Source: an uncultured Gemmatimonadales bacterium (GTDB taxonomy: Bacteria > Gemmatimonadota > Gemmatimonadetes > Gemmatimonadales > GWC2-71-9). From it: a stretch of 64,000 nt of DNA. Made by a program: the position numbers and the translations under genes. Below, piece after piece: positions 31,954 through 43,397 of this stretch (within the stretch, counting starts at the first letter, position 1; each line of letters starts with the position of its first letter). Location of the stretch: assembly GCA_963695555.1 (NCBI GenBank), contig CAVOGR010000001.1, positions 928,001 to 992,000 on the forward strand, written 5' to 3'. The notes under the pieces are model-generated. The model had not been told where the DNA came from and did not search any database. It was given only the letters and a program-made list of their open reading frames with translations.

Positions 31954-33146
31954 GGCGACACAATACCAGACTCCTGTCGTTGCCGGGCTATCCGCTGGCG
32001 GAGCTGCCGGGGATCAAACGGCGTCTGATCCAAGAAGGAAGGGACGTGATCGATTTGGGCGCCGGCGACAACGACATGCCGCCGCCCGCCGAGGTCGTGG
32101 CAGCGATGCAGGAGGCCGTCACCGACCCCGCCATGAGCAAGTATGGATTCCAGCAAGGCCTGCCCGAGTTTCGCCAGTCGGCCGTCCGATATCTCGAGCG
32201 GCGCTTTGGGGTCGCGATCGATCCGGTCGCGGAGCTCCTGCCCATGATCGGCTCCAAGGAGGGAATTGCCCACCTGCCGTTCGGCCTCGTCGAGCCGGGC
32301 GACGTCGCCGTCATTCCCGAGCCCGGGTATCAGGCCTACCTGGGTGGGGCGGTGCTGGCGGGTGCCGAGCCCTACGTCGTGCCGCTTCGGGCGGAGAACG
32401 GTTTCCTGCTCGAACTCGACACGCTGCCCACGGACGTGCTCCAGCGAGCGGCCATCGCGTATCTCAACTACCCCAACAACCCGACTGCGGCCGTCGCGCC
32501 GCGTGAGTACCTCGAGCGGGCGGTCGCCACCTGTCGCCGGTACGACATCGCGCTGGTGTATGACAACGCCTACTGCGACCTCACCTTCGACGGCTATGAG
32601 GCGCCGTGCATGCTTGGGCTGCCGGGTGCGCGGGACGTGGCCGTGGAGTACTTCAGCCTGTCCAAGAGCTTCTCGATGACGGGCTGGCGGATCGGGTTTG
32701 TGGCCGGCAATCGCGACCTGATCGCGTGTCTCACCAAGGTGAAGACCTATGTCGACACGGGGCCGTTCCTCGCCATCCAGCGCGCCGGCTCGGTGGCACT
32801 CGACCATGCGGAGCGGTTCGTCGAACCCGTGGTGCGCACCCTCGCCGAGCGGCGGGACGCAGCGGTCGACAGCCTGCGGGCGGCCGGGTTCGCGGTCGAC
32901 CCGCCGCGTGCGACCATGTACCTGTGGATCGCGTTGCCTGCGGGAGTCCGATCCTCCGAATTTGCGCGCGTGGCGCTCGAGGAGTGCGACGTCTTGGTAT
33001 TACCGGGGAGTGGATTCGGGCCGGCGGGTGAGGGGTTCTTCCGGATCGCACTCACGGTGAGTCTTGCGCGGCTGGCCGAAGCAAGTCAGCGTTTGGGACG
33101 GGCCCTGGACCGGGTGCGAGGCGGAGCGGTTGAAACCCGCAACTGA
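31950..33146 (+). CDS. Class I/II PLP aminotransferase (LL-diaminopimelate aminotransferase-like)
   Basis: GSKEG, NYPNNPT, DNAY, SLSKSFSMTGWRIG. Confidence 0.9.
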   Translation: MRRHNTRLLSLPGYPLAELPGIKRRLIQEGRDVIDLGAGDNDMPPPAEVVAAMQEAVTDPAMSKYGFQQGLPEFRQSAVRYLERRFGVAIDPVAELLPMIGSKEGIAHLPFGLVEPGDVAVIPEPGYQAYLGGAVLAGAEPYVVPLRAENGFLLELDTLPTDVLQRAAIAYLNYPNNPTAAVAPREYLERAVATCRRYDIALVYDNAYCDLTFDGYEAPCMLGLPGARDVAVEYFSLSKSFSMTGWRIGFVAGNRDLIACLTKVKTYVDTGPFLAIQRAGSVALDHAERFVEPVVRTLAERRDAAVDSLRAAGFAVDPPRATMYLWIALPAGVRSSEFARVALEECDVLVLPGSGFGPAGEGFFRIALTVSLARLAEASQRLGRALDRVRGGAVETRN

Positions 33147-33975
33147 CTTGTGGATGCCGCGATCGCGGCGCTGGTCGCCTTGGGCCATCGGCCTGAGTGT
33201 GGCGATCCACGTCGCGTTCATTCTCGTCTTCCGGGCCGAGGGCCACCTGCCCCACATCGCGCGCAGGCCCAGTCCCGACATCATCGTGCTCTCCCCGCCG
33301 GAGGCGGAGCGACGCGAAGTGCTCATGCCGTTTGGCGGAGCCCCAGCGGTCCCGCCTGCCGCGGGCCGGCCGGCGGTGCGCGTGGCCATTCCGGCGGAAA
33401 TATCCGAGCCCGACACCGTCGCCTACGATTTCCCGCCGGTGACCGTGACCGAGACGAGCCCCTACCGCCGTACCATCGGACGCATCGCTCCGAGGCTGGC
33501 CGGAGGCGGGCTCTGGGTCCGCCCGCTCCCGCTGCCACCGCAGGAACTGGCCCAGCGGATTACCCGCTCGCATGAAGAACTGGTCGACAGCGCGGTCACG
33601 GCCATCGTGCAGGCCTTTCTGGATTCGGTGACACCCGTGCCCGGTTCGGTGGTGGCGTCACTCCCGAAGTGGACCACCGAGATTGGCGGCAAGAAATTCG
33701 GCATCGACGGGAGCAACATCTACATCGCAGGACTCAAGATTCCCACTGCCGTGCTCGCGCTCTTGCCGCTCCAGGGCGGCAACATCGATCAGTCGCGCCG
33801 CTACAACGACCTGATGGACATGCGGTCGGATATCTACAACGCCGCTCGACGCGCGGATAATCTCGAGGAGTTCAAGCAGGTGATCGAGGAGATTCGCGAG
33901 CGGAAGGAGCGTGAGAAGGAGTTCGAGCGGAACCAACGCACGGCCCCGCCGCCGGAAGAACCTCCGGTTCCGTAA
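33130..33975 (+). CDS. Hypothetical membrane-anchored protein with TonB-like S-x3-H TM and Pro-rich linker
   Basis: TTG start with GGAG; LSVAIHVAFILV anchor. Confidence 0.7.
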   Translation: MKPATDLWMPRSRRWSPWAIGLSVAIHVAFILVFRAEGHLPHIARRPSPDIIVLSPPEAERREVLMPFGGAPAVPPAAGRPAVRVAIPAEISEPDTVAYDFPPVTVTETSPYRRTIGRIAPRLAGGGLWVRPLPLPPQELAQRITRSHEELVDSAVTAIVQAFLDSVTPVPGSVVASLPKWTTEIGGKKFGIDGSNIYIAGLKIPTAVLALLPLQGGNIDQSRRYNDLMDMRSDIYNAARRADNLEEFKQVIEEIRERKEREKEFERNQRTAPPPEEPPVP

Positions 33976-36829: not shown

Positions 36830-36919
36830 CGGAGCGGGAGGGATTCGAACCCTCGATAGGGGGATAAGCCCTATGCCGGTTTAGCAAACCGGTGCCTTCA
36901 GCCTCTCGGCCACCGCTCC
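36830..36919 (-). tRNA. tRNA-Ser(GCT)
   Basis: GGAGCGG...CCGGT-TTGCTAA-ACCGG, long variable arm, GGTTCGAATCC. Confidence 0.96.
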
Positions 36920-37066: not shown

Positions 37067-37870
37067 CTACCGTCGCTCGATGTGGACCCCGCCGTTGGTT
37101 GTCATCGCTCGGATCGGCGGGCCGCCGTCACCCAGCGTCACGGACAAGCGCTTCGTAAGCCGGCCCTGAACCATGACAGGGAAGTCGATCTCCAGCCCAC
37201 CGTTGGTGGTGCCGGTTTCCAGTCGGGCCGAGTAGCCGTCGGGCATTGTAAGGGAAACGCCGCCATTCCTGGTCTGGGCGTCCAACCCGGCGCCCTGCCA
37301 CCGCGAGCCGCTGAGCTCAATGTGGAGCCCTCCATTGGTCGTACGAGCGCGAACATCACCGCCGAGATTCCTGAGGTGGACACCGCCGTTTACCGTGGCG
37401 AGTGCCATCTTGCCGCGAACATCGCTCACCTCGACTCCGCCGTTCGTGGTTTCGAGGTCCAAGTCCTGACTGCGGGGTAGGTAGATCTCGTAACTCGCGG
37501 ACCAGTTTTCGTTGCGGCCGGTGGAGGGTCCCTTGGCGCGGATCGAGCCGCGGTCGGCCTCGATGCGGACCTCTGACGCAACCGCCCGGGCGCGCTCGTC
37601 GGTTCTCGCGTGGCCAACGACCACCACCCGAACGGCGATTTGGTCTCGGTCCCACCCCGAGACCTGGATTCCTCCGTTGGGACCCGCATCGACCTCGAGG
37701 CTGCCGGTCGGTGAGAGCGTCAGGTCCTTGACCAGACAATGCCGGCCCCGGTCGGCATTCCGCTCACGGCCCTCGCAGCTGGTTTGCCAATCTTGAGCGG
37801 TGGCTGGGGAAACCATGAGGGCGAGGAGTACTGCGATTGAGAGGCATGGAAGCACGTCATGTGACCGCAT
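37067..37870 (-). CDS. Secreted DUF4097/adhesin-like beta-repeat protein
   Basis: Signal peptide; repeated T-x-NGG[VL] units; GGAGG Shine-Dalgarno. Confidence 0.88.
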   Translation of the reverse strand: MRSHDVLPCLSIAVLLALMVSPATAQDWQTSCEGRERNADRGRHCLVKDLTLSPTGSLEVDAGPNGGIQVSGWDRDQIAVRVVVVGHARTDERARAVASEVRIEADRGSIRAKGPSTGRNENWSASYEIYLPRSQDLDLETTNGGVEVSDVRGKMALATVNGGVHLRNLGGDVRARTTNGGLHIELSGSRWQGAGLDAQTRNGGVSLTMPDGYSARLETGTTNGGLEIDFPVMVQGRLTKRLSVTLGDGGPPIRAMTTNGGVHIERR

Positions 37871-37962
37871 GGGGACCGACCTCCGGGTCGAGAGAGCCAA
37901 CGAGGGCATCAGAGGGTTAGATGCCCCGGAGTGCCCGAGGGTTGTCATCGTGCGACGAGCGG

Positions 37963-38625
37963 TTAGTCGAAGATGTGGTGGGTCACGGCGTAGTGGATCA
38001 GCCCCGGGGTGGTGCTCACGCCCAGGATCTTCTTGATGCGCCTGCGATGGAACTCGATGGCCTTGACGGTCAATTCAAGCGCCTCAGCCGTCTCGGCAAT
38101 GGTAGAACCGAGGACCAGGTGATGGAGGACTTCCAGCTGCCGTTCGGTGAGACGAAGCCAGGGCTTCATCCGCACCTCCCCACCGGTCGTTTGCTGCATG
38201 TCGCTGCCGGGCGAATACGCCTTGAGTTTGTCCGCCATGGCCGGGTCCATGAAGGTCTCGCCCTCGAGCGCCTTCTCAATGGCCGTCAAAAGCACCTCGC
38301 GCGGCGAATGCTTGAGCACGAACCCTGCAGCCGAGGCGCGCATGGCCTCGAGAGCGAACAGGGCCTCATCGTGCATGGTGAGGATGATGACCTTGGTGGG
38401 AGACCCGAGCTTCTTCATGCGCCGGGCCACGTCGATGCCGCTCTGTCCGGGCATGGACACGTCCACCAGGGCCAGGTCGGGCTTCAGGCGTTCGATCTCG
38501 TCCAGCACCTGCGAGCCTTCGTGTACCATGGCGACGACGCGGTAGGTGGGCTCGAGCGCGCCGACCAAGCCTTCGCAGAACATCTTGTGGTCGTCGGCCA
38601 CCAGGACTCGAGGGTGGTAGATCAT
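37963..38625 (-). CDS. NarL/LuxR-family response regulator
   Basis: VLVADDH, DVSMP, LTMH, FVLK; HTH LTERQLEVL...KAIEFHRRRIKKILG. Confidence 0.95.
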   Translation of the reverse strand: MIYHPRVLVADDHKMFCEGLVGALEPTYRVVAMVHEGSQVLDEIERLKPDLALVDVSMPGQSGIDVARRMKKLGSPTKVIILTMHDEALFALEAMRASAAGFVLKHSPREVLLTAIEKALEGETFMDPAMADKLKAYSPGSDMQQTTGGEVRMKPWLRLTERQLEVLHHLVLGSTIAETAEALELTVKAIEFHRRRIKKILGVSTTPGLIHYAVTHHIFD

Positions 38626-39398
38626 GGCCGCCTCTGAAGCGGCACCCAGGCCTCGACCCGGGTGCCCCGGTCGCGAGCCGGCATGACAGAAACCTGCCCG
38701 TTCACCAGGCGCGCCCGTTCCTTCATGCTGGTGATGCCGAGCCCGCCGGCACCCCGCTCCCAGTCCTCCGGCAGACCCCGTCCCTGGTCTTCCACCACGA
38801 GCCGAATACCCCCGTCCTGTTCCGTCATGGACAGGGAAGCGCGGTTGACCTGGGCGTGTTGGGCCACGTTCCGCAATGCCTCCTGGGCGATGCGGTAGAG
38901 ACTGGTGGTGAGAGCCTTGGGGAGGACGGTGGTCTTGTGTTTCATGTCGATGTTCACGTCCAGCTGGACGCCATCGGTACCGGTCATGTCCTGCGCCAAG
39001 GCCTCGAGCGCGGCTTCGAGCCCGAGATGGTCGAGCACGGCCGGGTGCATCCGCTGGGCGATGTTCCGGATGTCGTCGGCCAGATCGGCGACTTCTTCGC
39101 GGAGTTGGCCCACCCATCGGGCATAGGCCTCACGGTTCGGCGGGGGTGCCGTCCGCTTGCCGTCCAGTTCGCCGAGCAGCACGGCCACCCGCTGGAGCAC
39201 GTCGTCGTGGATTTCGCGGGCCACGAGGGCGCGTTCCTCCTCTTGGGCGGCGAGGAGGCGGTCGCTGAAGGCACGGACCGACGCCATATGCCGTCGCTGC
39301 TGCAGCATGACGGCGATGACGAACGCTACGACGACGATCGTAACGGTGCCGGCGGCGGCGAGATAGACCCACCAAATCTCAGGTACGACCGTCCGCAC
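38622..39398 (-). CDS. HisKA_3 histidine kinase with a single N-terminal TM and no sensor domain
   Basis: GTG start (inferred) VRTVVPEIWWVYL...; QEEERALVAREIHDD H-box, QEALRNVAQHA, DQGRG, GLGITSMKERA. Confidence 0.85.
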   Translation of the reverse strand: MRTVVPEIWWVYLAAAGTVTIVVVAFVIAVMLQQRRHMASVRAFSDRLLAAQEEERALVAREIHDDVLQRVAVLLGELDGKRTAPPPNREAYARWVGQLREEVADLADDIRNIAQRMHPAVLDHLGLEAALEALAQDMTGTDGVQLDVNIDMKHKTTVLPKALTTSLYRIAQEALRNVAQHAQVNRASLSMTEQDGGIRLVVEDQGRGLPEDWERGAGGLGITSMKERARLVNGQVSVMPARDRGTRVEAWVPLQRRP

Positions 39399-40016
39399 AG
39401 AACCCCCAGGGTCAAGAGTGCGTATGCCAGGATATTGATGGCGGCCTTCACGTAGAACGTCGCCCGCAGAATACTCCATGGAGTTCGAGGCGAGGAGCAT
39501 GTCACTCACGGGATCCAGCACCACCCCGCTCCCGAAGTAGAGCAGCCACCCGATGCTGATCCAAAACCACGGGGCGGCCGCGGGGGTGCTGGACTTCCTG
39601 AGCCGGGTCACCAGGGTGTAGGCCGCGGCCACCAGGATGACGAGGGCCTGGAGCGGGGCGGTGAACCGGCTGAACTGCGACGAGATCCTCGACGCAACCC
39701 CGTCATGACGAGCCAGGCCACCACGTAGAGCCCCGCGGCGATGCGCATGGCATCCCGCGGGACGACTGCGGAGCTGCAGGTAGGAGAAGCTCCACAGGAT
39801 GAGCGCCGTGATCACCGGCAAGGCCGCGTGGATGATCCAGAGAGTCTGGCTGCCGCGCTTGCCGAGCCATGTCATGACCACGTCCAGCATGAACATGGTC
39901 AGCATGGTGACTGCGGTTAGCATAAGGGCGGCGGTACCGGCCGGCGGACGGCAAATATCGCCGCGAACGCGAGGAACTCGACGCCGAATGACCGCGTAGA
40001 TCAGTGCATCGCCCAC
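39326..40016 (-). CDS. Stand-alone polytopic (~7 TM) membrane protein carrying several indels
   Basis: Hydrophobic helices alternate between frames: GVEFLAFAAIFAV / TMFMLDVVMTWL / WIIHAALPVITALILWSF / MRIAAGLYVVAWLVMTGL / LQALVILVAAAYTLV / WFWISIGWLLYFGSG / FYVKAAINILAYALLTLGVLC...TAG 39326. Confidence 0.7.
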
Positions 40017-40026
40017 AACTCGAGCC

Positions 40027-40481
40027 CTACTGGCCCAGATTGCCCGAACGCCTGCTACAAAAGGGCGGGCACGGCCTGCCCTTCTCGGCTATGGTCCCGT
40101 CCTCGAGATCGTTGCCCTTGGCTATCGACACCAACCACCACCAACGCCGGTGATCCGTCCGGGTTCATCCCCTGATAGATCCTGAGGCCGGCGACACCCG
40201 ACTCGCTCAGCACTTGGTCGAGCACCGCGCGGTCGAAGTACCCGGCAATGACCGTCCCCGGCGGATTCGCATTCGCGGAAGGCCCGGGTGAGCTCCGCCG
40301 CCTCGGGAGCCGACATGGCATGGAGGGCAACGGCCTCGGCACTCGGCGGCGCCATGCCCGCTTGCTGCGCCGGCTGCTCGGCACGGCAGCCGGCGAATAT
40401 CACGGCCATGCCTGCTACGAGGCCAGGAATAGCGAGCTCGGTGGAGCACTCGCGGTGTCGTGTGGTGAGCAGGTTGAACAT
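40027..40481 (-). CDS. Small lipoprotein with C-terminal PCPPFC motif (two +1 indels)
   Basis: GGAGGTG SD plus ATG 40481; lipobox FAGC. Reconstructed: HAMSAPEAAELTRAFRNANPPGTVIAGYFDRAVLDQVLSESGVAGLRIYQG...LVVVGVDSQGNDLEDGTIAEKGRPCPPFCSRRSGNLGQ*. Confidence 0.78.
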
Positions 40482-40593
40482 TGGACACCTCCGCCGACGA
40501 AATGATGAACTCGTGCGGGTCTCGGTACTGTCGCGACCCAAACTGATGCACGATACCATTCTCAGGCTAATCGGGGAATACGATCGTTGGGCT

Positions 40594-40613
40594 GACTAGG
40601 GTTTTCCCTAGTC
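40594..40613. promoter_or_regulatory. Perfect 8-4-8 palindrome, candidate response-regulator operator
   Basis: GACTAGGG-TTTT-CCCTAGTC, about 110 bp upstream of ATG 40481. Confidence 0.6.
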
Positions 40614-40692
40614 CTGATTTCGCCCGTTTTCGGCGAAGTTGAGCCAAGGTGACGCGACTGCTGGAGGACGATCGAACTCCTGACACTACGAA

Positions 40693-40780
40693 CGGCGTGG
40701 GTGAGATTCGAACTCACGGTACCCGGTTAGGGTACGGCGGTTTTCAAGACCGCTGCATTCAACCACTCTGCCACCACGCC
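40693..40780 (-). tRNA. tRNA-Ser(TGA)
   Basis: GGCGTGG...GCGGT-CTTGAAA-ACCGC, long variable arm, AGTTCGAATCT. Confidence 0.95.
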
Positions 40781-40878
40781 CTGACGTGGAAGGTAGCGAG
40801 CGGCCCGGGGCGGATACAAGCGAATAACCGGTTGGCGGCCTTGTCCCTCCCCGTCATTCGGCCGTATCTTGCCGCGCC

Positions 40879-41802
40879 GTGAAGCCCGGCCTTCCTCGCT
40901 CCGTATGGTCTGCCATGATTCCGAGAGTGTCCCGAGTGATTGCGATGCTCGCGGGGCTTGGCAGCGTGGCCTGTGGTTCCAGCCCGGCCTCTGATGCCAT
41001 CCGAGCGGGACCCCTGCCCGTCGCGGTCAGCATCCTGCCCCAGAAGTACTTCGTGGATCGGATTGGCGGGCCGGCCGTCTCGGTGTCGGTGCTGATCGGT
41101 CCGGGTCAGAGTCCCGACACCTACGATCCGACGCCGCGCCAAATGGCCAGCCTTGCCGGCACCCAGATCTATTTCACGATGGGGTTGGAGTTCGAGGAGG
41201 CCTGGCTCGGCCGGATGCATGCGGCATATTCCGGCATGACCCTGGTCGACATGCGTCGAGGGATCGAGCTGTTGCCGTTGGATGAAGACTCGGATCCAGG
41301 CCATGAGGGTCGTCAGGATCCGCACGTGTGGATGAGTCCACGGCTGGTGGCCGTCATGGCTGGGACCATTCGGGACGCCCTGATCGAGGCGCTGCCCGAT
41401 CGCCGCGAGCTATTCGATCATAATTACCAGCGGTTCGTCCGCGACCTGAGCGCCGTCGATGGTGAGGTCCAAGGCCTCCTTCGTGACCTCCCGACCCGGA
41501 CGTTCATGGCGTTCCATCCGGCGTGGGCCTACTTCGCCGAGGAGTACGGACTGCACCAAGTCCCCATTGCGAGCCACGGGAAGGAGCCCGGCGCCCAAAC
41601 CCTGGCGCGCCTGATCCACCAGGCTCGAGTCGAGCATATCCGGGTGGTGCTAGTCCAAGCCCAATACAGCCAAGGCATGGCGAAGACCGTGGCACAGGCG
41701 GCGGGTGCCAGGGTGCTGATGCTCGATCCGCTGGCGGAGGATTATGTGAACAACGTGCGGCATGTGGCCGAGCGGCTGGCGGAGGCGTTGCGCGAATCAT
41801 GA
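40879..41802 (+). CDS. znuA: Zn/Mn ABC transporter substrate-binding lipoprotein (start may be later)
   Basis: SVAC lipobox, SPDTYDPTP, DPHVWMSP, FHPAWAYF, LDPL. Confidence 0.88.
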   Translation: MKPGLPRSVWSAMIPRVSRVIAMLAGLGSVACGSSPASDAIRAGPLPVAVSILPQKYFVDRIGGPAVSVSVLIGPGQSPDTYDPTPRQMASLAGTQIYFTMGLEFEEAWLGRMHAAYSGMTLVDMRRGIELLPLDEDSDPGHEGRQDPHVWMSPRLVAVMAGTIRDALIEALPDRRELFDHNYQRFVRDLSAVDGEVQGLLRDLPTRTFMAFHPAWAYFAEEYGLHQVPIASHGKEPGAQTLARLIHQARVEHIRVVLVQAQYSQGMAKTVAQAAGARVLMLDPLAEDYVNNVRHVAERLAEALRES

Positions 41803-42533
41803 GTGCCGCGATCGAGCTCGAGCGGGTGTCGTTCAGCTACGGCGGGCCCCTGGTTCTGGAAGACATCGATCTCACCGTCGAAGAGGGCGAGTTCCTTGGC
41901 CTGGTGGGTCCCAATGCCAGCGGCAAGAGCACGTTGCTCAAGGTCATGCTCGGTCTCTTCCGGCCCACCGCGGGCCGAGTGCGGGTGTTCGGCCGCGATC
42001 CGGTAGACGGGCGCCACGCCATCGGCTACGTGCCCCAGTTCGCGACGTTCCGGCGGGACTTCCCGATCCTGGTTCGAGACATGGTGCTCCTGGGGCGGCT
42101 CGGCGCCACGCGGGTGCTGGGCGGCTATCGAGCGGCAGATCACGCCGCCGCCGAGCTCGCCATGCGTGAGGCCCAGGTCTGGGACGTCCGAGCCAACCCG
42201 ATCGGGATGCTCTCGGGCGGTCAGCTGCAGCGGGCGCTGGTGGCGCGGGCTCTGGTCTCGAATCCCAAGATCCTCATTCTCGATGAACCGACCTCGAACA
42301 TCGATGTGTTGGCGGAGGCCGACATTTTCACATTATTCCGGACGCTCAATGAGCGCATGACGATCGTTGTGGTGTCTCATGACGTCGGGTTCATCACCCA
42401 GTACGTGCATCGCGTGGCCTGCTTGAACCGGACCTTGGTGTGCCACCCCACCGGCGCCATCACCGGCGAGGTCATCGCCCAGTTGTACGGCACGCCGGTG
42501 CGGCTCATCGACCACGGCCATGACCACTCATAG
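41799..42533 (+). CDS. znuC: Zn/Mn ABC transporter ATPase
   Basis: GPNASGKST, GYVPQ, LSGGQLQR, LDEPT, SHD, His-rich tail. Confidence 0.92.
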   Translation: MSAAIELERVSFSYGGPLVLEDIDLTVEEGEFLGLVGPNASGKSTLLKVMLGLFRPTAGRVRVFGRDPVDGRHAIGYVPQFATFRRDFPILVRDMVLLGRLGATRVLGGYRAADHAAAELAMREAQVWDVRANPIGMLSGGQLQRALVARALVSNPKILILDEPTSNIDVLAEADIFTLFRTLNERMTIVVVSHDVGFITQYVHRVACLNRTLVCHPTGAITGEVIAQLYGTPVRLIDHGHDHS

Positions 42534-42542
42534 GATGCTGTG

Positions 42543-43397
42543 ATGGGCGAGTTCTTCCGAACGCTTGCCACCGAGCAGTTCCTCCAGCACGCCTTGGCGG
42601 CGGGAATCCTCGCGAGCATCGGCTGCGGGGTCATGGGCTCCTACGTGGTGGTCAAGCGTATCGGCTACTTGGCGGGGGGTATCGCCCACGCCGTGCTGGG
42701 CGGGATGGGGATCGCGTACTTTTTTGGCCAGGACCCGATCCTCGGCGCACTGATCGCCGCGCTCGCGGCAGCCCTCATCGTGGGGTGGGTCAGCCGCCAC
42801 GGAACCGAGCATGTCGACACACTGATCGGTGCCCTGTGGGCCGTCGGCATGGCGATCGGGATTCTCTTCATTTCGCAGACCCCGGGCTACAACGTCGACC
42901 TGTTGAGCTACCTGTTTGGCAACATCTTGATGGTGGCTCCGAAAGGCCTGCTGTTCATTGCGATTCTCGACCTGATCATCGTGGTCTTGGTCTTGTTGCT
43001 CTACCGGCAATTCCTGGCCGTCGCGTTCGACGAGGAATTTGCCCTGCTCCGCGGCGTCTCCGTCGAGTTCGTCGATCTGCTACTCCTCTCCCTGGTGGCC
43101 CTCACGGTCGTCACGCTGATTCGGGTGGTCGGGCTGATCTTGGTGATCGCCCTGCTCACGCTCCCAGCGGCCATTGCCGGGCAATACGTCCGTTCCCTGG
43201 GACGCATGATGCTGCTGGCCATCGTTCTGGGGATGGGGTTTACGGTCGGCGGGCTGGCGCTGTCATTCCGCCCCGACCTCCCGGCAGGCGCTTCCATTAT
43301 TGTGGTGGCCGGGGTCGCGTACCTGGTGTCGACCGGGCTCCAGGCCGCCCTCAGGTGGCGGAAGATGCGCGGCTTACGAGGGCGACACTCCGCCTAG
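42543..43397 (+). CDS. znuB: Zn/Mn ABC transporter permease
   Basis: GIAHAVLGG, YLFGNIL, FDEEFA, VGLILVIALL. Confidence 0.92.
   Translation: MGEFFRTLATEQFLQHALAAGILASIGCGVMGSYVVVKRIGYLAGGIAHAVLGGMGIAYFFGQDPILGALIAALAAALIVGWVSRHGTEHVDTLIGALWAVGMAIGILFISQTPGYNVDLLSYLFGNILMVAPKGLLFIAILDLIIVVLVLLLYRQFLAVAFDEEFALLRGVSVEFVDLLLLSLVALTVVTLIRVVGLILVIALLTLPAAIAGQYVRSLGRMMLLAIVLGMGFTVGGLALSFRPDLPAGASIIVVAGVAYLVSTGLQAALRWRKMRGLRGRHSA

Follow-up and report, generated by a model that had tools for sequence, protein, structure and literature searches.

A four-gene two-component cassette in which a seven-helix membrane protein and a small CPPxC protein may sense for an anchor-only kinase

Introduction

Where does a histidine kinase that carries no input domain get its signal from? 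To our knowledge, the route has been established for only a handful of systems, mostly from Firmicutes. The question is raised by a locus in a 64,000-nucleotide stretch of DNA from an uncultured Gemmatimonadales bacterium (assembly GCA_963695555.1, contig CAVOGR010000001.1, forward-strand positions 928,001 to 992,000; here G000:C1:928001-992000, about 65% G+C), to which we refer as a whole as the window. On its minus strand, from 40481 to 37963, four coupled genes encode a small protein with a CPPxC motif, a stand-alone seven-transmembrane (7-TM) protein, a histidine kinase with a single membrane anchor and a response regulator. The original prediction, made from the sequence alone, had described these genes and a palindrome upstream of them as a signalling cassette, hidden by insertions and deletions (indels), and had proposed a peptide quorum-sensing-like system with the 7-TM protein as a split receptor. 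All parts that it named are present where it had placed them. They are as follows, with lengths in amino acids (aa) and distances in nucleotides (nt).

40594..40613, no strand: candidate operator palindrome, GACTAGGG-AAAA-CCCTAGTC, perfect 8+4+8, about 113-132 nt upstream of gene 1
40027..40481, minus strand: gene 1, small CPPxC protein, about 149-150 aa without indels, lipobox VIFAGC
39326..40016, minus strand: gene 2, stand-alone 7-TM protein, about 230 aa in relatives, frame-broken in the window copy
38622..39398, minus strand: gene 3, anchor-only histidine kinase, 258 aa, with a GTG start, about 8 residues, one transmembrane (TM) helix, HisKA_3 and HATPase_c
37963..38625, minus strand: gene 4, NarL/LuxR-type response regulator, 220 aa, Response_reg and GerE

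The explanation towards which we lean is a four-component, probably self-regulating signal-transduction operon, in which the sensing for the kinase is done by the two helper proteins encoded upstream of it.

Results

The two downstream genes encode a HisKA_3 kinase and a NarL/LuxR-type regulator, i.e., a two-component system. Pfam finds HisKA_3 (5.2e-07, 30.6 bits against a cut-off of 24) and HATPase_c (1e-11) in the kinase open reading frame (ORF) of the window and no other domain, and the intact kinase of G003, a genome of the same genus, has the same Pfam domains. One TM helix follows after about 8 residues, HisKA_3 starts at residue 55 of 259, and the H-box reads REIHDD, which agrees with the original prediction of a kinase without an input domain. 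In NCBIfam the nearest models to the kinase core are MctS and UhpB, both far below their cut-offs, and the LiaS model matches the core at 5.8e-18. In the regulator, Response_reg (1.5e-23) and GerE (6.7e-08) both score above their cut-offs, and its ATG at 38625 overlaps the stop codon of the kinase as ATGA.

The neighbourhood of these genes is conserved; a lack of such conservation would have refuted the original prediction. A kinase search in 41 related genomes returned 10 loci, nine of which have the order small protein, 7-TM protein, kinase, regulator; the exception, L007, has its small-protein match beyond the regulator, at a contig end. With a profile of the small protein, 39 of 301 Gemmatimonadota genomes gave a match, mostly within the order of the window organism. 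We counted the pair as adjacent when the small-protein gene is followed immediately, on the same strand, by the 7-TM gene, and this was the case in 30 of 30 Gemmatimonadota loci. A kinase follows the pair within the 1.5-kb flanks in 22 of these 30, always with one N-terminal TM anchor and usually of the HisKA_3 class. When species-representative genomes were searched with one Bacteroidota-like member (P0084), the pair was adjacent in all nine loci found, three of them from Bacteroidota. Profile searches of 401 Bacteroidota genomes gave 51 with a match, in line with the relatives in this phylum that the original prediction had mentioned, and at 27 of 31 loci the small-protein gene is followed directly by the 7-TM gene; at the remaining four, a divergent 209- to 233-aa protein with 5-6 TM helices occupies the slot and a one-TM HisKA_3 kinase comes next. 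The small protein is present in roughly one eighth of the sampled genomes of either phylum.

The genes around the pair are more variable. In L042 and L047 the kinase is of the PAS-HisKA class, with one TM helix first and a start that overlaps the end of the 7-TM gene (the L042 kinase is a hybrid with a receiver domain), which indicates that one kinase class can replace another behind the same upstream pair and with the same kind of anchor. L046 has the order kinase, regulator, small protein, 7-TM protein; what stays together is the pair of small-protein and 7-TM genes. Beyond the four genes, no conserved neighbour was found in the flanks examined. Copy number differs as well: two to three tandem 7-TM genes precede one kinase in L010/L024 (G011:C169:20012-23194), L055, L059 and L081, and these operons also hold whole or partial extra copies of the small-protein gene, while two tandem small-protein genes occur in L043, L044, L038, L058, L068 and L071. 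Beta-propeller genes (DUF5128, NHL) lie near the cassettes of L046 and L048.

As assembled, genes 1 and 2 of the window are frame-broken. We compared the window with contigs from four short-read metagenome runs of three studies; public runs share at most 0.17 of the sequence words of the window, and the contigs used come from relatives about 90% identical to it. The window has single extra bases near 40272 and 40123 in gene 1 and at 39766/7, 39694, 39682 and 39469 in gene 2, each of them missing from the short-read contigs, and two further frame changes in gene 2, near 39992 and 39930, are deduced from the reading frames and from the way the window aligns with G002, its closest genome. Indels are absent from the kinase and regulator, where one 1390-base short-read contig runs gap-free over 38030-39419, and in the n-region of the gene 1 signal peptide a 1+5-base difference from the short-read contigs keeps the frame. 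In G001 and G003, both of the same genus, the four-gene cassettes are intact, and public data hold intact 149-aa homologues of the gene 1 product with 89-94% identity, one close homologue being from a Gemmatimonadales metagenome-assembled genome. Reading the genes after correction of the indels is justified because the short-read contigs and the intact relatives lack the extra bases of the window, and the four coupled genes of the original prediction stand.

Genes 1 and 2 might instead be true pseudogenes in this organism, the helper pair having decayed while the kinase and regulator survive, which we consider rather doubtful. A stretch of about 1.15 kb contains at least six frame-breaking single-base insertions and the neighbouring 1.4 kb has none, and the closest genome, G002, is frame-broken in the same genes. 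Decay would also fit the distribution of the 65 frame-breaking gaps in a 40-kb alignment of the window with G002, 26 of which are concentrated in window kb 39-40, but similar patches occur in kb 37 (8 gaps) and kb 35 (7 gaps), where the window's own ORFs are intact. The six confirmed differences are all single extra bases, several of them extending a run of 1-2 bases; this is typical of consensus error, whereas decay also brings deletions and larger events. Three of the insertions add up to one codon and restore the frame. Substitution divergence from the short-read contigs is alike, at about 9.3-9.5% for genes 1-2 and 7.8% for the kinase and regulator, and the source genome (G000) consists of 14 contigs yet has only 87% marker completeness. 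Judging from these patterns, patchy consensus error in both assemblies, rather than true decay, is the most likely origin of the broken frames. Both the window and G002 assemblies are hit by indels at the small-protein and 7-TM genes, and the cause of the patchiness could be strain heterogeneity, base modification or real decay. For annotation the lesson is that single-base insertions make the helper genes invisible to gene callers and lead to the kinase being mis-called as a 464-aa fusion.

This fusion (38622-40016) arises as the first frame of gene 2 stays open into the kinase in the assembled window, and it exists only because of insertions that the relatives lack. Taken at face value, the single frame would mean that the 7-TM protein and the kinase are one polypeptide, either as a genuine fused sensor kinase or through programmed -1 frameshifting. 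The genes do overlap, by about 70 nt in the -1 frame in the window and about 45-85 nt in relatives, and the kinase frame equals the 7-TM frame minus 1 in all 12 loci in which both parts were matched. In the same region, however, a GTG start codon (once ATG) with a G-rich Shine-Dalgarno (SD)-like motif occupies an identical place in the alignment in all 8 loci that have the H-box pattern, of nine examined. Both signals sit within the last codons of gene 2, and the start codon uses the TG of a conserved 7-TM Cys codon. The kinase of L046 is upstream of, and unlinked from, the 7-TM gene, and in L010 the second 7-TM copy, not followed by a kinase gene, stops only a few residues past the conserved Cys. 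The positive-inside rule would put the C terminus of the 7-TM protein and the N terminus of the kinase on opposite sides of the membrane, so that a direct fusion would place the kinase domain outside. No fused 7-TM form of at least 420 aa was found among 7999 candidates at an E-value of 1e-5 or better, which is weak evidence. We give the single polypeptide next to no chance; by its translation signals the kinase is a polypeptide separate from the 7-TM protein, because its own SD motif and start codon are conserved inside gene 2. Programmed -1 frameshifting was rejected on the conserved SD motif and start codon, the unlinked order in L046 and the topology argument. The split receptor of the original prediction does not hold in the literal sense, the kinase having kept its own TM helix.

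We then come to the two helpers themselves. Gene 2 runs from a GTG at 40016 to a stop codon at 39326, with several frame hops as assembled. The AlphaFold2 (AF2) model of the 7-TM protein is of high confidence (predicted local distance difference test score, pLDDT, 92.4; predicted template modelling score 0.86) and contains seven helices. Its top 50 structural neighbours are G-protein-coupled receptors (GPCRs), designed GPCR-like folds, GPR155/LYCHOS and microbial rhodopsins, with Z-scores that range, over residues 1 to about 210, from 9.9 up to 13.3. Highest among them are 8oyx_B (Z 13.3, root-mean-square deviation (rmsd) 4.1, 198 residues aligned) and ADGRL3 (Z 12.5), and the best Foldseek E-value is 0.027; the structure tool itself cautions that, for helical bundles, a Z-score below about 13 may mean no more than a common arrangement. 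The model thus predicts a GPCR/rhodopsin-like seven-helix bundle, which shows a shared arrangement and is no evidence of homology, and the idea of a stand-alone, receptor-like partner is upheld. The protein matches no Pfam or NCBIfam family at or above threshold. Pfam models of 7TMR-DISM, 5TMR-LYT and MASE gave no match in two members at an E-value of 1 or in 41 members at 0.01, and a profile of the family found nothing below 0.41 among PDB sequences. The charge bias, read in two sequences, suggests one topology throughout.

Gene 1 starts with the ATG at 40481, 8 nt after GGAGG, and is spread over three frames, the first with MFNLL...VIFAGC and its lipobox, the second with ...GLRIYQG...LVVVGVDSQG and the third with NDLEDGTIAEKGRPCPPFCSRRSGNLGQ, followed by the stop codon at 40027-40029. 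The C-terminal end of the product, GRPCPPFCSRRSGNLGQ, is in a different frame from the lipobox. Direct reading of the N terminus (MFNLLTTR...GLVAGMAVIFAGC) gives the charged n-region, the h-region and the lipobox Cys of a lipoprotein; in relatives the lipobox reads ...LLVAGC (G003) or ...FAAC (P0001, P0003 and P0004). Outside the genus, the lipoprotein signal is absent from 32 other Gemmatimonadota loci, and a stop codon lies a few codons upstream of the small-protein domain. Among 83 aligned homologues from two phyla, 11 have a signal-like N terminus and 72 do not; the small protein is also exported in L042 and L047.

The CPPxC motif is kept in 83 of 83 sequences, with both Cys invariant, and so is an Arg. 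A Tyr is conserved in 79, a His near the N terminus in 69 and a third Cys (QPGC) in 65, and the tail behind CPPxC has a median length of 8 residues. The third Cys is present in 62 of the 72 signal-less members versus 3 of the 11 signal-bearing ones, counts that are not independent as the sequences are related. In larger databases the profile matches 2734 cluster representatives at an E-value of 0.001 or better and 1188 at 1e-10 or better. About 60 of the best 150 hits are proteins of 180-290 aa with two tandem small-protein domains (e.g. P0007-P0048); by a crude pattern count CPPxC occurs twice in only 17 of 159 proteins, so one copy of the domain may often have lost the motif.

The AF2 model of the small protein has a mean pLDDT of 85, rising to 93-96 in the core, and the conserved domain spans about 100 aa. 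The protein has no match at or above threshold in Pfam or NCBIfam, a search of the PDB for its fold gave no convincing match (best Foldseek E-value 0.12, best VIA Z 3.8), and its profile found nothing below an E-value of 0.26 among PDB sequences. Structure hits to CopG, IscU and PAS are weak leads only. In the ESM Atlas, the neighbours of both helper proteins fall into clusters of 'hypothetical proteins', mainly from Gemmatimonadota and Bacteroidota.

These properties bear on the proposed quorum-sensing role, in which a released, disulfide-looped C-P-P-F-C peptide would be sensed by the 7-TM protein and relayed to the kinase. The gene order and the likely autoregulatory palindrome do resemble the agr and com layouts, and the lipobox implies export of the small protein in this genus; in most of the family, however, there is no signal-like N terminus (72 of 83), and in Gemmatimonadota outside the genus the stop codon upstream of the domain is only a few codons away. 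A C-P-P-F-C loop with a single disulfide is chemically viable, the only PCPPFC match in a literature search being Czon1107, an unrelated cone-snail peptide (PMC9409646, as far as the available part of that source goes). Pheromone cores normally diversify, whereas CPPxC is invariant across two phyla, and conservation and model confidence span the whole domain of about 100 aa, unlike a leader with a variable core. In favour of the peptide role, some loci hold tandem extra copies of the pair (e.g. L010/L024 and L059). Against it, many of the best 150 hits are two-domain fusions of 210-270 aa. The cassette has no conserved protease, exporter or modifying enzyme next to it, AgrB and other peptidase models gave no match among 41 members of the 7-TM family at an E-value of 0.01 or better, and the kinase is not a polytopic receptor kinase. 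Altogether, peptide quorum sensing is unlikely, and a released C-P-P-F-C peptide as the signal has very little in its favour; this part of the original prediction is given up.

The palindrome is unremarkable by itself, as the window alone contains 48 perfect inverted repeats with 8-bp arms (loop 0-10) versus 21.9 in shuffles, and it gains weight only from the comparison between loci. It is conserved in G002 and not in G003. When the 260 nt upstream of gene 1 were scanned, a perfect CTNNNN-N4-NNNNAG was found in 17 of 34 Gemmatimonadota loci, 48-186 nt upstream of the gene, compared with 0.13 in shuffles (maximum 1); with one mismatch allowed, the figures are 21 of 34 and 1.57. Among spacers of 0 to 9, CT-starting palindromes occur in 17 loci at spacer 4 and in 0 or 1 at every other. 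Arrays of 2-4 copies, often 24 nt apart, are found in L012 (four), L045 (three) and L048 (two).

The half-sites are lineage-specific. In three other genera (L019, L022 and L029), which share the half-site of the window, CTAGGG-N4-CCCTAG precedes gene 1 by 118-150 nt, while CTACCA, CTATAA, CTGGAG, CTGCTA and more are found elsewhere. Among the 14 regulators with a known half-site, the recognition-helix residue before 'FH' tracks that half-site: E goes with ...GG (6/6), A with CTAC[CT]A (4/4), T with CTATAA or CTGGAG (3) and H with CTGCTA (1), and the helix KAIEFH is common to the window regulator and the other CTAGGG-type loci. This co-variation suggests autoregulation, an idea of the original prediction that also fits the recurrence of this class of element. 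We consider it reasonably likely, from these alignments, that the CTNNNN-N4-NNNNAG palindromes are the operators of the cassette's own regulator.

The CTAGGG palindrome occurs 19 times in this genome, always between genes, versus 0.42 expected. G002 has 15 copies and G003 none, and G016, G294 and G237 have 2-3 each, one of which is always at the cassette; of the other half-sites, CTGCTA has 10 copies in G085 (four at the cassette) and CTACCA 11-21 in three genomes of genus g8. The genes beside the 19 sites are mixed and include a transposase, an integrase fragment, a type II/IV secretion-type ATPase, beta-propeller proteins, a second LuxR regulator and others, and among the 4 extra sites in G016, G237 and G294 only an RmuC gene is shared, by two genomes of one genus. 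For the second LuxR-family response regulator, whose gene follows a DUF5128 beta-propeller gene, the palindrome is at G000:C7:243976 (beside L106:1630-2382), 138 nt upstream. In a single case, L114:4091-4612 (G237:C44), the palindrome precedes an amine-oxidase gene, followed by a gene for an LTXXQ/Metal_resist (CpxP/Spy-like) periplasmic stress protein. Copies of CTAGGG-(T/A)4-CCCTAG at G000:C10:34209, 34506, 34803 and 36848 and at G000:C8:48263 and 51193 are arrayed at intervals of about 297 nt in stretches with few ORFs where contigs end, and a five-copy array lies in G002:C5:470251-471406. Rfam has no family in these non-coding clusters, and the arrays away from the cassette may be an unrecognised tandem repeat or mobile element.

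How, then, might the cassette work? With about 8 residues outside, one membrane helix and then the phospho-acceptor and ATPase domains, the kinase would be unable to sense on its own. Because it lacks any means of sensing, and because it is the small protein, the 7-TM protein and the anchor helix that stay constant, we propose that sensing is done by the helpers. The GPCR-fold 7-TM protein would lie beside the single helix of the kinase in the membrane and set the balance between its kinase and phosphatase activities. The small CPPxC protein would be the obligatory partner of the 7-TM protein and carry the reactive part, namely the invariant Cys pair and usually the third Cys and the His. The cassette would most probably respond to thiol/redox or metal chemistry, or to an envelope condition that is relayed by the small protein, which in this genus would have gained a lipoprotein signal and become periplasmic while most other lineages are without an export signal. 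Once phosphorylated, the NarL/LuxR regulator would bind the CTAGGG-N4-CCCTAG ahead of gene 1 and a few further sites.

Several observations are hard to reconcile with this scheme or leave room for others. The main difficulty is that the small protein carries no signal in most lineages but is exported in this genus and in L042 and L047, and such mixed export, together with an apparently single 7-TM topology, makes a single conserved contact face hard to picture. By analogy with what has been reported for SaePQ, the helpers might only stabilise or damp the kinase, and the search for fused proteins, again as weak evidence, gave no 7-TM-kinase form that would prove an input-domain role. The co-variation of recognition helix and half-site follows clades, so the matches are not independent events. 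Some of the 19 CTAGGG copies have transposase or integrase genes as neighbours, or are found at the ends of contigs or between genes that seem to be convergent, and the palindrome could be a repeat element or the site of another factor. No common target gene emerges among the genes beside the palindromes in this genome, G016, G237 and G294, and the upstream regions in Bacteroidota show no clear enrichment of palindromes (9 of 30 loci versus 3.85 in shuffles, maximum 9).

The direction of control could also be the reverse, with genes 1 and 2 as outputs, i.e., a stress-protection pair such as a metal or thiol handler and its membrane partner that is switched on by the two-component system. A layout with output genes first is known from liaIH, which stands ahead of liaGFSR, and genes 1 and 2 are the first behind the candidate operator. 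The Cys/His set of the small protein could bind metal, and its presence in both compartments would suit a protective protein. There is also a weak likeness to CopG (6wis_A, Z 3.6, rmsd 4.2, 51 residues aligned, 24% identity; Foldseek E-value 0.63), but this is below any meaningful score. As outputs, the pair would leave the kinase without any sensor, and it is tied to anchor-only kinases far more strictly than is usual for effector genes. Furthermore, the start codon of the kinase is embedded in gene 2, which ties the stoichiometry of the two products together. We regard the output role as improbable and retain helper-based sensing as the better account of the locus.

Two further features lie next to the cassette.

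37067..37948, minus strand: secreted DUF4097 'toastrack' protein (Pfam DUF4097, 4e-11), a possible associate outside the conserved core
40693..40780, minus strand: tRNA-Ser(TGA), upstream boundary of the cassette, syntenic in three genomes of the genus (G002, G003 and the window)

The DUF4097 gene is directly downstream of the regulator on the same strand in the window and likewise in G001; in L043 it lies about 4 kb from the cassette, and it was not found in the other flanks examined. A tRNA-Ser (GCT; window 36830-36919, minus strand) and the tRNA-Ser (TGA) bracket the cassette and the DUF4097 gene. Beyond the upstream tRNA, a divergent metal-uptake transporter (ZnuA-like binding protein, ATP-binding cassette (ABC) ATPase and ABC-3 permease) is encoded at window 40879-43397 on the plus strand, and no such transporter was seen beside the cassette in other flanks examined. 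A 303-aa ORF at window 33064-33975 (plus strand), between aminotransferase and PGA_cap genes, has high third-position G+C and no Pfam match. A scan of 40400-40900 for sigma-70 promoters and intrinsic terminators found none.

Discussion

The cassette is a widespread and compact case for how input-less kinases get their signal. As a candidate operator is in hand, a reporter assay is straightforward, and the regulator and operator offer a testable case of lineage-specific re-tuning. It is tempting to speculate further, and more tentatively, that the pair is a portable sensing module, in which a 7-TM GPCR-fold receptor and a small Cys/His partner signal sideways in the membrane to anchor-plus-core kinases of different classes while lineages re-tune recognition helix and operator. 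If true, this would be a previously undescribed class of transmembrane signalling. A literature search, from which subscription journals were missing, found no description of the cassette, and it is best placed by comparison with known systems.

Like agr (AgrBDCA) and comQXPA, the cassette has four genes, the first of them for a small product, encodes membrane components together with a kinase and a regulator, and is probably autoregulated. In the two peptide systems, the receptor kinases AgrC and ComP are polytopic, the peptide is processed by AgrB or ComQ, and the precursors are short with variable cores. In contrast, the cassette has neither a polytopic receptor kinase nor a processing protein, and its small product is not a short variable precursor.

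In LiaFSR, VraTSR and BceRS-AB, too, the kinases have no extracytoplasmic domain and receive the signal through a separate membrane protein, and LiaS is also of the HisKA_3 class. LiaF carries a DUF4097 domain and the Bce partners are ABC transporters. A DUF4097 protein, the LiaF-like feature, is encoded downstream of the cassette only in the window and G001 and is not conserved with it. The kinases of these three systems have two TM helices versus one here, and their partners are unrelated to the 7-TM bundle. Intramembrane-sensing kinases are defined by two TM helices, a linker of under about 25 residues and no other input; with its one helix, the kinase of the cassette works like this class without fitting the definition. 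VraT is described in the accessible part of its source as an uncharacterised membrane partner (bioRxiv 10.1101/2025.01.23.634444).

The seven-helix arrangement recalls LytS-type BtsS, a 7-transmembrane receptor that binds pyruvate (PMC10653868, available part), and the 7TMR-DISM proteins, in all of which a seven-helix membrane receptor feeds a histidine kinase. Such fused kinases show that a kinase can be driven by a 7-TM receptor. There, receptor and kinase are one chain, whereas here they are two and the kinase adds an eighth helix.

Dependence of a kinase on a lipoprotein and a polytopic membrane protein is known from the KinB system of Bacillus subtilis, in which the lipoprotein KapB and the membrane protein KbaA have their place upstream of the kinase (PMC6011975, as given in the part available). 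The Pfam family KbaA (PF14089) scores below threshold in 3 of 41 members of the 7-TM family (best E-value 9.1e-05, 22.8 bits versus a cut-off of 27); all three hits belong to a single genus and are shifted in register, and the other 38 members have no match. A search for the KbaA family in the window's own genome, in which gene 2 is frame-broken, found nothing. In the available part of the same source, KbaA is described with six helices, compared with seven here, and KapB with an SH3 domain and a helix, for which the model of the small protein gives no match (PMC6011975).

Along with KinB, the closest documented analogue is SaePQRS from Staphylococcus aureus. In the part of the source available, this operon of four genes encodes a lipoprotein (about 146 aa), a polytopic membrane protein of small size, a kinase whose only input is its anchor and a regulator, and the first promoter is under the control of the operon's own regulator (PMC5083920). 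The lipoprotein SaeP and the membrane protein SaeQ join SaeS in a ternary complex; they are dispensable for activation and turn on the phosphatase activity (PMC5083920, same part), in contrast to the sensing role that we propose for the helpers here. The same text gives the order P-Q-R-S, four TM helices for SaeQ versus seven here, and two TM helices with a HAMP domain for SaeS, and in it SaeR is not stated to be of the NarL type. Most homologues of the small protein are not lipoproteins, and the likeness is one of architecture only. Set beside these systems, and with the fold of the 7-TM protein taken from its model, the cassette is a two-component system with auxiliary proteins that is built from two unannotated families, one of them GPCR-like in its predicted fold.

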